Assembly: GCA_963695855.1 (NCBI GenBank)
Contig: CAVOHZ010000008.1
Coordinates: 32,001-96,000 of the forward strand
DNA length: 64,000 nt
Origin: an uncultured Nitrososphaerales archaeon
Lineage (GTDB): Archaea; Thermoproteota; Nitrososphaeria; Nitrososphaerales; Nitrososphaeraceae
Reading direction: 5' to 3'
Below the pieces are notes generated by a model. It ran no database searches. It worked only from the letters and a program-made list of their open reading frames with translations, and was not told where the DNA came from. Positions 15,376 to 20,493 of this stretch are shown in pieces (position 1 is the stretch's first letter; each line of letters begins with the position of its first letter). A program made the translations under genes and the position numbers.

Positions 15376-15840
15376 TTATTTTATTACATTAATATTTAAC
15401 CTAACAAAGTCTAATTTCCATTGTAATTCTTTTGCATTAGTTTCAATTTCCTGTACTACTGATTTAGCAAACTTCTCTTTTAGCTTGTCATTAGGTAAAA
15501 ATTTTAGATAGGGTATTAGAACAATTGTTTTTATGAAAAGAAGATATTCTTCTTTGTTACTAAATTTAGCATCTTTATCTTCCAGAAAGACTTGGATATT
15601 CCTAAAACCTATTTCTTGTAATCTTCTTTCTGTATCTTCTTTTTTGGCAAAATACCATGTTTGATTCCAAATATCTTCTCCTTTATTGTTGCTAAAATAA
15701 TTATAAAATTCCTTTTCCTTGCTAACTTTATTGAGAATGGATAGAGTCTTTGTAAGATCTCTATGTCCACCACATTGAATTAATAGTTGACCTTCAGGGT
15801 TTAGAATTTGCCAGAAGCGTTCAAAAACTTTTTTAAAATA
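15376..15840 (-). pseudogene. 5'-truncated class I SAM methyltransferase (trans-aconitate methyltransferase-like C-terminal half)
   Basis: Startless frame KKVFERFWQILNPEGQLLIQCGG...WYFAKKEDTERRLQEIGF...LDFVRLNINVIK*. Confidence 0.65.
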
Positions 15841-16440
15841 TAAAAATCAATATCAAACTTAAATATCCTTTCTGTGTATATAATAGTATGTTTTGTAATA
15901 TATTCAGTAAACTATTTGGAAAAAAGGAAAAAAAATTAGATAAAATAGATGATAAAAAGCCAGTAGAAAACGCATAGAATTATGCAAATGGATTCTTTCT
16001 ATAGAATGTTTTGTTTGTGATTTACCTGAAACTGCAAGAACTATAGACTTTTCAATCAATCGTTGTACGGAGTCTAAAATCTCCTCATCACTAAGTCCAG
16101 TCCTCTCTTTTAATATGCTATTCTATTTTGTTCATGGACTATTTCGTTTTTGTTAAGAAATTAATTATAGACGTGTTGGTCTTGTGCTTCTGTGGCTTTG
16201 GCTTCCATACCTTAAAATCCTTACGCCTTTGCCTTTAAAAAAACTTATCAAAAATATTTTTTCCTAGAGCAGTCAATTATTAGCGCCTCCTGTTGCATTA
16301 ACCTCTAACTTACTAAGTGTTAACCTATTTCTATCATACATTATAATATTTCTCCTTTATTGTAAAAAAAGTCAAAATATATGGAATTTGTCAGCTCTGA
16401 CGATATGAAAATCTTCTAGTATATTCCATTACTGTATGTT

Positions 16441-16600
16441 GGCTAGGTTCAAACTTAACATACTCCGTATGAGAGTGAGGCTCTGACTGAACCGTATCTT
16501 ATGAATGAATGAATGAGTGGCTATCATAGTACCCTTAGAGGGTGAATGGATGTTTGCCACCTGTTAGCCAACAACAAGAACTAAAAAAGAAGGTGAATGA
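16441..16600 (+). ncRNA. Putative bridge/seek RNA of the IS110 element
   Basis: Two stem/internal-loop modules (GGTTCA/TGAACC; GTGGC/GCCAC with an ACCCT/AGGGT hairpin) and segments matching the reconstituted target and donor junction. Confidence 0.6.
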
Positions 16601-16609
16601 AAAAGAAAA

Positions 16610-17680
16610 TTGAATCATCTTGGAATAGATGTCGGAAAAAGAATATGCAGAGTAGCACTAAAAGATGACATGGGAAAGATACAGGATGAATTCTTCTTTG
16701 GTAACAATTCTCAGGGAATATTAGAATTGATTAAAAGGACACAGAATTATAGAACAAAAAAATGTAATGCAGTACTGGAATCTACCGGTAACATGTGGAT
16801 GAGAATACATGATACACTGGAAGATAATGGAATAGATACTATACTTGCCAATCCATACAAGACAAAGATAATAGTACAAGCAAAGATAAAATCAGATAAA
16901 CTTGATGCTTCTATATTATCTGATCTGCTGAGAACTGGATTGGTATACGAATCATATGTACCTGTAAAGGAATTCAGAGAAAAAAGGAGTCTGGTCAGAC
17001 ACAGGATAGTATTATCCAGAACCAAAACAAAACTAGCAAACAAGGTTCATGCTATTTTAGACAAATATGAATACAGAACAGAACTGGCAGATATATTTGG
17101 AAAATCTGGAATTGAGTGGCTGAAATCACTGTCTGTTTCACCAATAGACAAAATAATACTGAATACGACACTAACATCAATAGAATCTATAGCTAACCAG
17201 ATAGAAATAGTATCAAAAGAGATAGCAAGATATGCCTGGCAAGATAGTCAAGATGTAAAGTTACTTCTAAGTATTACAGGTATAGACATATTTTCTGCAA
17301 TGCTGATATCAACAGAGATAGTTGATATCACTAGATTCTCTACACCATGGAAACTTGTTAGTTATGCAGGATTGGCACCATCTACAAGAGAGTCATCTGG
17401 AAAAATAAAAACAGGTAGAATAACAAAACAAGGTTCTCCATTGCTGAGATGGATACTAGTACAGTGTTCATTATCTGCCATCAGACATGACCATCATATG
17501 AGAACATTCTATGAAAGAATCAAACAGAGAAAGGGGCATGGAAAAGCAATAGTTGCGACAGCAAAAGAAATGCTTGTTGTAATATGGTACATGCTAACAA
17601 GACACCAATTGTATAGATACATGAACAAGACTAGATATGAGGAGAAACTAGAAAGACTGAAGAAGATCGGATCTCAATAA
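16610..17680 (+). CDS. IS110 family DEDD recombinase/transposase
   Basis: GIDVGK, LESTG, KSDKLDA and SYAGLAPSTRESSG...ITKQGSPLLR. Confidence 0.95.
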   Translation: MNHLGIDVGKRICRVALKDDMGKIQDEFFFGNNSQGILELIKRTQNYRTKKCNAVLESTGNMWMRIHDTLEDNGIDTILANPYKTKIIVQAKIKSDKLDASILSDLLRTGLVYESYVPVKEFREKRSLVRHRIVLSRTKTKLANKVHAILDKYEYRTELADIFGKSGIEWLKSLSVSPIDKIILNTTLTSIESIANQIEIVSKEIARYAWQDSQDVKLLLSITGIDIFSAMLISTEIVDITRFSTPWKLVSYAGLAPSTRESSGKIKTGRITKQGSPLLRWILVQCSLSAIRHDHHMRTFYERIKQRKGHGKAIVATAKEMLVVIWYMLTRHQLYRYMNKTRYEEKLERLKKIGSQ

Positions 17681-17937
17681 AGTAAAGGTAATTAGACAAC
17701 AAAAAGACAATGAGCTCTGAGAATAGGAACGTCATATATAGCGGAGGCTATTGTTGACAATGCTTAATAGATAGAAAGACATAACAAAATAAGGCTGAAC
17801 AGGATACAAAAGATAACCAGCATACATGTAGATTTTCATGGATGTTAAGTTAAGGAAAATTTATGAAATAAATTGAAAAATTCTTTTGAAATTGAGCACA
17901 GAACATAATATAAAAGTAGAATATACACATTATTTTA

Positions 17938-18864
17938 GGTAATACCTGTACATTTGGAGCAAAAAATAAACACATGATATGTTATTTTATACATATTTGT
18001 GCGTAAATATGATCCAATAGACCTAGCATCAAGCGATAAGAAAAGTAGTATATATTTTCGTAATCTTAGATGGAATGGAAAAAGAATATGTCCTAGATGT
18101 AGGTATAGACTTCTATATTATCTGAAATCAAATAGGTATGGCTGTAAACGTTGCAGATATAATTTTAGTGAATTTACAGGTACATATCTCGGACAGATAC
18201 GAACATCGCTTAGCAATATCATACACTTACTTTATCTATTTACATTAGGAGTACCTGCATATAGAATTAGATTTTATGTATCATGTGATCTATCAACAAT
18301 AGAAAGAACATTTCGATTATTTAGACAAACGATATATGATAAATCGCTACAACAACTACATGAATTAAAGTTATCTGGTGAGATTGAAATTGATGAAGCG
18401 TTATTTGGTGGTTATAGAAAAGGTGGCAAGAGAGGATGGGGTGTAATTGAGCACAAAAATCTGGTATTTGGTATCTACAAGAGAAATGGAATTGTTATTA
18501 CATTTCCAGTATCTGATAGAAAACATGAGACACTTATTCCCTTGATAAAACAATATACCAAGAAAGGATCGTTGTACTATTCTGATGACCATACTGCATA
18601 TGCAATGTTGAATATGATTGGAAAACATCAAGTCGTTGCACATGGAAGAGATGAATATGTAAGAGAAGATACCCATATTAATAGAATTGAAGGATTCTGG
18701 AGTTATGCCAAGACATGGTTGTATCATTACAGGGGAGTACCTAAACAGTATTTTCATGTATATCTAAAAGAGATAGAATTCAGATTCAATAACAGGGAGA
18801 AGGATATTTTCTATGAATTATCAAAATTAATGATAAAATCTGCTCCAACTATGTAGGTATTACC
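17938..18864 (+). mobile_element. IS1595-family insertion sequence
   Basis: 24-bp imperfect IRs GGTAATACCT...TTGGAGCA at 17938-17961 and 18841-18864; no TSD evident. Confidence 0.85.
17999..18856 (+). CDS. IS1595 family transposase
   Basis: Zn ribbon CPRC...CKRC, EIDE, SDD, HINRIEGFWS, YLKEIEFRFN. Confidence 0.93.
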   Translation: MRKYDPIDLASSDKKSSIYFRNLRWNGKRICPRCRYRLLYYLKSNRYGCKRCRYNFSEFTGTYLGQIRTSLSNIIHLLYLFTLGVPAYRIRFYVSCDLSTIERTFRLFRQTIYDKSLQQLHELKLSGEIEIDEALFGGYRKGGKRGWGVIEHKNLVFGIYKRNGIVITFPVSDRKHETLIPLIKQYTKKGSLYYSDDHTAYAMLNMIGKHQVVAHGRDEYVREDTHINRIEGFWSYAKTWLYHYRGVPKQYFHVYLKEIEFRFNNREKDIFYELSKLMIKSAPTM

Positions 18865-19059
18865 TTTAACAATACATGGTAATAGATATATAATATTATA
18901 AAAATTAAATGGAGGAGGTGGGATTTGAAGGCTCTGTTCGAATCCTGTTTTTTGGATGCATAAATGGGTGATGACATCAATAACTAATTAATATTACTTT
19001 TTATGGTTCTGTAAACTTCCCGTCAGATTTCTAATGTGTAAAAAATCGTCGGATAAATT

Positions 19060-19374: not shown

Positions 19375-20493
19375 ATGAGCAAACAGTTAGTAAATCGTGA
19401 AGAATTGGGAAAACAGTTACAAAATCATGTCCAGAGAATTGATGATAAAACTTACTGTATCAAGTCATTAACATCTAACAAAATTTATGAAATTGTTTCT
19501 ACTCAATTAGGATTTGTTTGCTCATGTCCAGACCATATGTTTAGAGGAATAAAATGTAAGCATATTATAGCTACTGAATTAAGTCTCAAAATAAGAGAAC
19601 AGGTTAAGAAAAGAATTATTGAACCAATTGTAAATATTGGCAAGTGTATTTATTGTAAATCTTCTCAAATTATTAAAGATGGTATAAGACATAACAAATA
19701 CGGAGATATTCAGAAATTCAACTGCAAAGATTGCAGAAAATATTTTACAATCAATATTGGCTTTGAAAGAATGAAACACAATCCACAAGGAATTACTACT
19801 GCAATGCAGTTATACTTTAGTGGAGACTCATTAAGGAATACTGCTAAATCTTTAGAGTTATTAGGAGTAAATGTAAGCCATCAAACTATCTACAATTGGA
19901 TTGAAAAATATACTCGACTAATGGACAAATATTTAGAGAGTTTAATTCCAGATGTTTCTAATGCTTGGCGAACGGATGAATTATACTTGAAAGTGAAAGG
20001 AAATAACAAATATTTGTATGCTTTGATGGATGATGAAACTCGTTTCTGGATTGCTCAACAGGTAGGAAATACCAAATATACAGAAGATATAAAACCACTT
20101 TTGCAGAAAGGAAAAGTACTAACAGGTAAAAGACCATTATCATTTATCAGTGACGGAGCAAAAAACTTTCATCAAGCATACAAGAAAGAATTTTTCACAA
20201 TAAATAATCCTCGAACTAAACATATTTCCCATATCAGGTTACAAGGAGACCATAACAATAACAAGATGGAAAGATTAAACGGAGAAATTAGAGATAGAGA
20301 AAAAACCATGAGAGGTTTGAAAAAATGCAATTCTCCTATATTGAAAGGCTACCAAATCTATCATAACTACATTAGAGAACATGAAGGTTTAAACGGAAAA
20401 ACACCAGCAGAAAAATGCGGGATAAAAATTGAAGGTAATGACAAATGGCTTACGATTATTCAAAATGCCGAGAAGGAGCTAAGAAATGAGTAA
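19375..20493 (+). CDS. IS6-family DDE transposase with N-terminal SWIM and Zn-ribbon domains
   Basis: CSCPD..RGIKCKH (SWIM), CIYC...CKDC, HTH (SHQTIYNW), WRTDE, ISDG, NNKMERLNGEIR, HEGLNGKTPAE. Confidence 0.92.
   Translation: MSKQLVNREELGKQLQNHVQRIDDKTYCIKSLTSNKIYEIVSTQLGFVCSCPDHMFRGIKCKHIIATELSLKIREQVKKRIIEPIVNIGKCIYCKSSQIIKDGIRHNKYGDIQKFNCKDCRKYFTINIGFERMKHNPQGITTAMQLYFSGDSLRNTAKSLELLGVNVSHQTIYNWIEKYTRLMDKYLESLIPDVSNAWRTDELYLKVKGNNKYLYALMDDETRFWIAQQVGNTKYTEDIKPLLQKGKVLTGKRPLSFISDGAKNFHQAYKKEFFTINNPRTKHISHIRLQGDHNNNKMERLNGEIRDREKTMRGLKKCNSPILKGYQIYHNYIREHEGLNGKTPAEKCGIKIEGNDKWLTIIQNAEKELRNE

Follow-up and report, generated by a model that had tools for sequence, protein, structure and literature searches.

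An archaeal IS110-family element with IS1111-type ends and a putative two-loop guide RNA

RNA guidance of IS110-family recombinases is already known from bacteria. In IS621 the guides run toward a CT core and two handshake nucleotides follow the 3'-side guides, according to the available text of the reports (PMC11208160, PMC11208158), and the left target joins the left, RNA-bearing end of the insertion sequence (IS) (PMC11208160, PMC11208158, PMC13626964). The IS1111 group is defined, in the available text of Siddiquee et al. (PMC11187229), by subterminal repeats, usually of 11-13 bp (7-17 in another source), by 7- and 3-nt terminal extensions and by a downstream non-coding region, with a few upstream exceptions such as ISMtsp17; in IS1111-type seekRNAs the complement of the top strand comes first, and the order is reversed in an IS110-type element. 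Here we describe an IS110-family IS at positions 16400-17844 (plus strand) of a 64,000-nt stretch (the window) of contig CAVOHZ010000008.1, from an uncultured, Nitrososphaeraceae-like archaeon of the Nitrososphaerales. The element is intact and is assigned to the IS1111 type rather than the IS621 type by its ends and guide order. We consider it very probable that its 356-aa DEDD/Ser recombinase is guided by a ~140-nt leader RNA.

Ends, core and target of the element

We compared 12 copies in this genome (3.55 Mb in 11 contigs) with about 45 in related genomes. Identity among copies begins with ACGATATG and ends with ...CATGGATG, and the DNA upstream of GGCTCTG differs from copy to copy. The element proper occupies 16400-17842, with a TG core at both junctions (16398-99 and 17843-44), and measures 1,445 bp when the right-hand TG is included. 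This TG is the sole core repeat, there is no further target duplication, and empty sites contain a single TG. The left border reads ACGATATG in full copies and ACTATATG in recombinase-less mini copies, preceded by GGCTCTG with unrelated DNA beyond; the right border reads ...CATGGATG in full copies and CATAGATG in minis, followed by TTAAGTTAAGG. A preliminary description, made from the letters of the window, had placed the ends at two copies of ATGTT (16436-40 and 17842-46), taken as a 5-bp repeat. The two copies exist, but they are not the ends: the 36 nt to the left of the first one (16400-16435) are kept, together with the flank GCTCTG, in all other copies, minis included. Because these 36 nt are conserved and uninserted sites reading GGCTCTGTTAAGTTAAGG are found, the true ends are 16400 and 17842. 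That description had named different ends in other copies as a result that would refute it; as far as the ends go, this is what the copies show.

The features of the ends and of the target are as follows.

16393-16399, plus strand: left target half AGCTCTG, the last two nucleotides being the core TG; the 7 nt farthest out in the terminal inverted repeat of an IS6-like IS and of MITEs (miniature transposable elements with inverted repeats)
16405-16414, plus strand: left subterminal repeat ATGAAAATCT, reverse complement of 17830-17839
17681-17842, plus strand: 3' non-coding region and right end, containing AGATTTTCAT (17830-17839) and the extension GGA
17843-17853, plus strand: core TG and right target half TTAAGTTAA, inner part of the IS6-like inverted repeat

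ATGAAAATCT and AGATTTTCAT form subterminal inverted repeats that match perfectly over 10 bp, or at 11/12 positions, and lie 5 nt from the left end (7 nt with the core) and 3 nt from the right end. The terminal extensions are asymmetric, with 7 nt on the left (TGACGAT, the core being counted left) and 3 nt on the right (GGA). All copies conserve ATGAAAATCT, including that of a Bathyarchaeia relative whose recombinase is 59% identical; being A/T-rich and ~25 nt upstream of 16436-38, it may suit as the archaeal TATA element of an RNA promoter. The 162-nt 3' non-coding region is conserved and is retained by the minis.

Empty sites read GGCTCTG|TTAAGTTAAGG, that is GGCTCTG|TTAAGTT. The target 18-mer makes up the tip of the inverted repeat that terminates a ~723-bp IS (21 repeat pairs in the 700-749-bp bin), which carries a 219-aa open reading frame (ORF) matching PF13610 at 38.5 bits and the NF033587 'IS6 family' model at 102 bits, under the cut-off of 125. 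MITEs of ~110 bp are bounded by the same tip (9 pairs). Every insertion lies 7 nt inside the repeat, and both ends of the host element are used (one of the minis is an example). The genome holds 93 contiguous, unoccupied repeat-tip sites (<=3 mismatches), with the left variants GGTGCTG, GGCTGTG, GGCCCTG and GGTCCTG and the right variants TTAAGTT, TTAACTT and TTAATTT. Assignment of the repeat to a neighbouring IS1595-type ORF was rejected, since the repeat bounds the ~723-bp IS6-like units and the ~110-bp MITEs. 3' of the element, the remnant of the MITE that received it spans 17845 to ~17937, where it is cut by another repeat unit (17938-18900) that bears this IS1595-type transposase ORF (17999-18856, PF12762 plus zinc ribbon); further on, 19375-20493 encodes a 372-aa IS240/IS6-like DDE ORF with a SWIM finger, so that the region is one of nested mobile DNA.

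A putative two-loop leader RNA whose guides covary with their DNA partners

The leader contains the following features.

16436-16576, plus strand: putative bridge/seek RNA gene of ~140 nt; extent approximate
16438-16446 (TGTTGGCTA) / 16565-16573 (TAGCCAACA), plus strand: closing stem, in both the minimum free energy (MFE) and the centroid structure
16446-51/16488-93, plus strand: arm 1 stem GGUUCA/UGAACC, from the fold
16452-16460, plus strand: 5' guide of loop 1 (target-binding), AACTTAACA, antisense to core TG and right flank TTAAGTT; 9/9 here
16479-16487, plus strand: 3' guide of loop 1, GGCTCTG plus handshake AC, sense to left flank and core; AC equals element nt 1-2
16517-21/16556-60, plus strand: arm 2 stem GUGGC/GCCAC, from the fold, with an inner ACCCT/AGGGT hairpin
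16522-16525, plus strand: 5' guide of loop 2 (donor-binding), TATC, antisense to element nt 3-6 (GATA, 16402-16405)
16546-16554, plus strand: 3' guide of loop 2, ATGGATG plus handshake TT, sense to right end and core (17838-17844); TT equals right flank nt 1-2

In the window copy the matches are 6/7 for the left flank, 9/9 for the right flank, 7/7 for the right end, 4/4 for element nt 3-6 and 2/2 for each handshake. Parsing of this genome and of loci in related genomes gave 61 copies; four of them failed a criterion that takes no account of the match, which left 57, and one unpublished genome was excluded. All four guide/DNA pairs covary. The left flank equals the 3' guide of loop 1 exactly in 35/57 copies, against a shuffle mean of 17.3, and none of 50,000 shuffles reaches 35. 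Among the 23 non-consensus guides at this position, 12 equal their own flank, through nine different sequences (GGTCCTG, AGTTGTG and GGCCCTG twice each, and GGTGCTG, GGCTGTG, GGCTATG, AGTTCTG, GTTAATG and GGGTTTG). Core and right flank match the 5' guide of loop 1 exactly in 15/35 copies (shuffle mean 4.9; 0/50,000 shuffles as high). One right-flank position pairs as C:G, G:C or A:T, a TAAA.. variant also covaries, and so does a double change, guide AAGTGAACA accompanying flank TTCACTT. These target-side counts are not inflated by shared descent, because the flanks are foreign DNA.

On the donor side, the right end matches the 3' guide of loop 2 exactly in 25/31 copies, in three states (ATGGATG, ATAGATG and ACGGGTG), and element nt 3-6 match the 5' guide of loop 2 in 40/46, in five states (GATA, TATA, GACA, TACA and AGGA). 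The Bathyarchaeia relative has AGGA/UCCU, with all four nucleotides changed on both sides, and two changes at the right end. The loop-2 handshake agrees with the right flank in 28/31 copies (TT in 24, TA in four; p about 7e-4). The loop-1 handshake AC is invariant in this family; it is AA in a second IS110-family element of this genome, which itself starts with AA. No guide matches were found in the 162-nt downstream region (17681-17842). The rest of the 5' strand of loop 2 (AUAGU and variants) showed no pairing with the core-proximal TGAC of the left end that was consistent across lineages, whether contiguously, around a 3-nt bulge or in shifted registers (UCAUA against TATGA).

The segment 16434-16576 folds with an MFE of -43.1 kcal/mol (z -2.85; 0/200 shuffles as stable) into a three-way junction with two arms, each interrupted by an internal loop and ending in an inner hairpin. 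Across 21 aligned sequences, the outer stem of arm 2 has a U-A pair in 10 and a C-G pair in 10, its inner hairpin shows compensatory changes at three pairs, and arm 1 is nearly invariant. The linker between the arms (16497-16514) contains a 4-nt repeat (ATGA/TGAA) of variable copy number; the linker is 4 nt shorter in the second intact copy of this genome and in contigs of three runs, and far shorter in other lineages. In one related genome an (AG)n run is expanded within the loop-2 hairpin.

Contigs of two RNA libraries from two studies span 16455-16650, from the leader into the gene; this evidence is weak because DNA may be present in such libraries. The coverage fits an RNA processed from the 5' untranslated region (UTR), DNA carry-over being possible. 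Three RNA-library runs gave zero contig cover over 16300-16411 and only traces over 16412-16467, and are uninformative on the start site. A transcript from the opposite strand was rejected: the 5' ends of its guides would meet the core and the handshake nucleotides would lie 5' of the guides, contrary to what has been described (PMC11208160, PMC11208158).

The preliminary description had proposed an intact, compact archaeal IS110-family element whose leader carries target and donor guide segments in an order that might differ from that of IS621, and both points are supported, the order being that of the IS1111 type. Guide-target covariation across copies and orthologs, which it had put forward as a check, is what we found. 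Its listed strings and stems are all present where it had placed them: the 12-mer AACTTAACATAC at 16452-16463 in the GGTTCA/TGAACC stem, ATGGATGTT at 16546-54 (identical to 17838-46), the GTGGC/GCCAC stem with its inner ACCCT/AGGGT hairpin, TAGCCAACA at 16565-73 and the 356-aa ORF. The assignments fared unevenly. Nine nucleotides of the 12-nt target match (TGTTAAGTT) lie in the real target and the other 3 do not; the 12-mer occurs exactly once in the window and four times with <=1 mismatch (0.79 expected; 1/100 shuffles reach 4), one of these four near-matches being the right junction itself. ATGGATGTT stands as a donor guide, sense to the right end, while the second donor guide is TATC at 16522-25, pairing with element nt 3-6, and not TAGCCAACA, which pairs with TGTTGGCTA (16438-46) as the closing stem of the RNA. 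The second target guide, for which CCGTATG or ACCGTAT had been suggested, is instead GGCTCTG+AC at 16479-87, which covaries with the left flank.

Recombinase, copies and mini elements

The recombinase gene lies at 16610-17680 (plus strand) and encodes 356 aa from a TTG start, with AGGTGA 15 nt upstream. The protein contains PF01548 (DEDD_Tnp_IS110; 75.6 bits, cut-off 29) and PF02371 (Transposase_20; 79.1 bits, cut-off 21.3), and scores 226.5 bits against NF033542 'IS110 family RNA-guided transposase' (cut-off 140). It aligns with the IS621 and ISCro4 proteins, both of which have been solved, at E about 2e-9, sharing the motifs GID, E(S/A)TG, K(S/T)DxxDA and ES(S/G). The catalytic-motif residues are D7 (GID), E57 (LESTG), D96 and D99 (KSDKLDA) and S262 (RESSG), where IS621 has GID, EATG, KTDTVDA and YESGS; they would correspond to IS621 D11/E60/D102/D105/S241, assuming a +2 offset in chain numbering. 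The best plasmid matches (tblastn) are unnamed 'IS110 family transposase' genes from haloarchaea (40%) and rhizobia (38%), and the named ones (ISAtu7, ISBth13, ISSso6, ISEc45 and ISShdy1) are not assignable to a subgroup.

The genome carries archaeal small- and large-subunit rRNA genes. Relatives of the recombinase occur in metagenome-assembled genomes of Nitrososphaeraceae, Nitrososphaerales and Ca. Nitrosocosmicus and in one Bathyarchaeia genome of the same kind. Among 121 sampled genomes of the family, 20 encode the protein (E up to 1e-30), in 8/18 genera with the genome studied here counted, and 25 contain the leader (24/120 without the unpublished genome). Soil-metagenome runs of several studies contain most of the stretch.

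Five copies in this genome are full-length: the window copy and a second one are intact, two are frameshifted and the fifth is interrupted by an insertion of ~1.03 kb within its recombinase gene (contig C10:167345-168373). Truncated remnants are frequent (C10:1382470-1382514 and six other loci), and some consist of the left end alone, or of the left end, loop 1 and half of loop 2, followed by unrelated DNA; they suggest frequent deletions or secondary insertions at these elements. In one RNA-library run, a single 281-nt contig of depth 3.8 joins 17807-17842 to 17398-17640, fusing the exact right end and TG to the interior of the recombinase gene (..CATC-TG-GAAAA..). Such a joint would be expected if one copy had inserted into another at an off-target TG; it comes from a single low-depth contig of another organism's population.

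Seven further copies in the genome are minis of 318-350 bp that lack the recombinase, and every one of them carries a two-loop RNA gene of its own.

Contig C10: 1746112-1746449 (minus strand), 1354508-1354844 and 1407618-1407950
Contig C8: 113675-114012 (minus strand) and 187906-188223
Contig C3: 37349-37669 (minus strand) and 465565-465914

In each mini the left end and the RNA gene are followed by an A-rich stretch, then by the 3' non-coding region and, last, by the right end; the longest ORFs, of 27-79 aa, are not common to different copies. Two minis at different loci are 100% identical and a third is 99.7% identical; they have therefore moved recently. Their donor guides fit their own end variants, guide AAUAGAUG going with right end CATAGATG and guide UAUA with left end ACTATA; against the RNA of the full element, each mini end would have one mismatched base. 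Comparable minis are present in at least five related genomes, at six loci. A joint 16493>17830 in the contigs of a DNA run (one contig, side 24) most likely stems from mini-type copies.

A second IS110-family element, with 42% amino acid identity, is present as an inverted pair ~1.3 kb apart (C10:287645-288700, plus strand, and C10:289954-291009, minus strand). It has 12-bp subterminal repeats, 7/3-nt extensions (TGAATAC and AGA), an upstream RNA and the same guide grammar; its left-flank guide is CTTGTTG+AA here and TGTGTTG+AA in a related genome, and its element nt 3-6 and loop-2 5' guide are TACA/UGUA. A third element (34% amino acid identity) is found in near-identical copies at C10:140729-141742, 267175-268188 and 1598722-1599735. 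With a short upstream and a ~390-nt downstream non-coding region it has the classical IS1111 layout; its conserved left part starts with GGCTCTGTAGG and holds a GCTCTGT/ACAGAGC hairpin.

Proposed mechanism, alternatives and relation to other systems

We propose that a ~140-nt transcript of the leader that directly precedes the gene would guide the recombinase, loop 1 reading the target GGCTC-TG-TTAAGTT at the tip of the IS6-like IS/MITE inverted repeat and loop 2 the joined ends of the element itself. The handshakes AC and TT, one after each 3' guide, would match the partner DNA that arrives after strand exchange, as the handshake guides of IS621 do. The circularised element would recombine at the TG core and land 7 nt inside the foreign inverted repeat. 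The predicted circle junction is ...TTTTCATGGA-TG-ACGATATG... (...CATAGA-TG-ACTATATG... for a mini), and excision would restore GGCTCTGTTAAGTT sites. Internally deleted minis that keep the RNA gene and both ends would be moved in trans.

Ends, core, target, fold and the covariation of the four guide/DNA pairs come directly from the sequences, whereas the making of a discrete RNA and its binding by the recombinase, the circle and the chemistry are inferred, the RNA libraries having been read as contigs. Several observations weigh against the proposal. Rfam gave no family over the leader when 15500-18800 was scanned at E up to 10, the 4 weak hits being chance matches. In the contigs of four runs there is no joint of right end, TG and left end expected of a circle and no empty-site joint, contigs being no proof of absence. 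Shared descent confounds the donor-side covariation and inflates its counts, and the donor left-side top strand has a TGAC beside the core without a complement in the 5' strand of loop 2 in any lineage. Flanks often mismatch, on the left in 22/57 copies and on the right in 20/35, most of these being decayed or mini copies; the copy of the window reaches only 6/7 on its left flank, and the single Bathyarchaeia copy fits at the left flank and both ends and not at the right flank.

Some of these points would suit a system in which loop 1 is the sole guide, in the manner of a short IS1111 seekRNA, the protein reading the ends through the subterminal repeats and the loop-2 matches being inherited and having no role in pairing. 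IS1111-type seekRNAs of 70-100 nt, with target matches only, co-purify with their transposases in the available text of PMC11187229; 10-bp subterminal repeats are indeed present at the ends, and the 5' guide of loop 2 pairs over just 4 nt, misses the core and covaries on the side where descent intervenes. We nevertheless find this unlikely, given five covarying states at element nt 3-6 and three at the right end, the AGGA/UCCU of the Bathyarchaeia relative, a loop-2 handshake that tracks the right flank (TT or TA) and loop-2 stems that stay paired through compensatory changes. It is still harder to see the leader as a 5' UTR or regulatory region in which the matches arose by shared ancestry or gene conversion while the protein reads the IS6-like repeat. 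The target is a conserved repeat, so that many matches are to its consensus (23 of the 35 exact left ones), but the flanks, as tips of another IS family, are foreign to the element and vary independently; nine variant guides equal variant flanks, one right-flank position shows three base-pair types, NF033542 is annotated as RNA-guided, and relatives have been shown to be RNA-guided in the available text of PMC11208160 and PMC11187229. We regard that reading as very improbable.

The layout of the preliminary description, an element from ATGTT at 16436 to ATGTT at 17846 with a 5-bp direct repeat, a target ACTGT-ATGTT-AAGTT and donor arms TAGCCAACA and ATGGATGTT, can hardly be maintained. Its strings exist, and the 12-nt match to the target that it had reconstructed is exact. 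Against it stand the 36 nt that precede 16436 and are conserved in all copies, minis included, the 93 contiguous GGCTCTGTTAAGTTAAGG-like sites, the pairing of TAGCCAACA within the RNA and the covariation of GGCTCTG+AC with the true left flank. The empty target ...ACTGTATGTTAAGTT... and the circle junction ...GGATGTTGGCTAG... had been put together from the wrong ends, and an empty site with the former sequence was neither seen nor needed for the data.

The element resembles IS621 and ISCro4 in its DEDD plus Ser recombinase, in an RNA upstream of the gene with the target loop before the donor loop, and in that each loop reads both strands, the 3' ends of the guides lying at the 2-nt core and the handshake after the 3'-side guides. 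According to the available descriptions, the guides also share the 9- and 7-nt lengths of those of IS621, run toward the core like them and have their handshakes at the same positions. It differs in having a TG rather than a CT core, 10-bp subterminal repeats, an archaeal host, a donor 5' guide of 4 nt lying away from the core and a long-range stem that closes both loops; where TGAC is unpaired here, IS621 has 8 contiguous pairs in the available text of PMC11208158. In addition, the strands are read the other way from IS621: the top strand, at the right target and the left end, is paired by the 5' sides of the loops, and the bottom strand, at the left target and the right end, by the 3' sides. 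Antisense pairing of the 5' sides at the right target and the left end puts the gene cassette in inverted orientation to the recombination site, as if flipped within the circle.

With the IS1111 seekRNA elements ISEc11, ISPa11, ISKpn4 and ISPst6, as far as the available text of PMC11187229 describes them, the element shares subterminal repeats with a 7-nt left and a 3-nt right extension, a top-strand complement (AACTTAACA, 16452-60) located 5' of the bottom-strand match (GGCTCTG, 16479-85), and natural reprogramming between relatives. It is unlike them in that its guide-bearing region comprises the 210 nt upstream (16400-16609), not a downstream region, in that its repeat is 10 bp perfect (11/12) rather than the usual 11-13, and in its clear second, donor-matching loop. 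Three IS1111 criteria are thus found together with a different location of the guide region and an IS621-like two-loop RNA with handshake guides. The variant, in which an upstream two-loop RNA occurs together with ends and a guide order of the IS1111 type, looks new; the bridge-RNA diversity of Durrant et al. and the ISfinder survey of Siddiquee et al. may already include this layout.

IS4321 and IS5075, of the IS1111 family, reportedly also insert into the terminal inverted repeats of another transposon family. Their targets are said to be Tn21-family transposons of bacteria, unlike the IS6-like IS and MITEs of the archaeon studied here. For the minis, a literature search for earlier guide-RNA-bearing mini elements found only MITEPpu9/ssr9 of ISPpu9 (Pseudomonas putida), the nearest precedent: a small recombinase-less module with IS110-family ends and an sRNA gene, proposed to hitch-hike on the IS transposase (PMC12288879). 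In the available text of that report Ssr9 is not a guide RNA and is dispensable for transposition, whereas the minis described here keep a guide RNA matched to their own ends. The minis may be guide-only parasites in which a bispecific RNA of their own, on a recombinase supplied in trans, sets both cargo and landing site, and in which, as in the full elements, the target guides track the variants of the IS6-like tip; we put this forward tentatively, as somewhat less than an even chance. If true, it would amount to RNA-coded hyperparasitism of transposon on transposon in archaea of the ammonia-oxidising type.

The sequence-level guide map of this archaeal IS110/IS1111 member is complete, with two target guides, two donor guides and two handshake dinucleotides. 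Since natural reprogramming is visible in dozens of copies, reprogramming experiments can be designed directly. The element combines in one unit features that separate the two groups, which bears on the relation between the IS1111 and IS621 layouts, and minis with matched RNAs suggest that guide RNAs themselves could be the selfish unit. Organisms of this family are soil ammonia oxidisers, and we know of no genetic tools for them. At 356 aa plus ~140 nt, a compact, native and putatively programmable recombinase could serve as a tool for such organisms.

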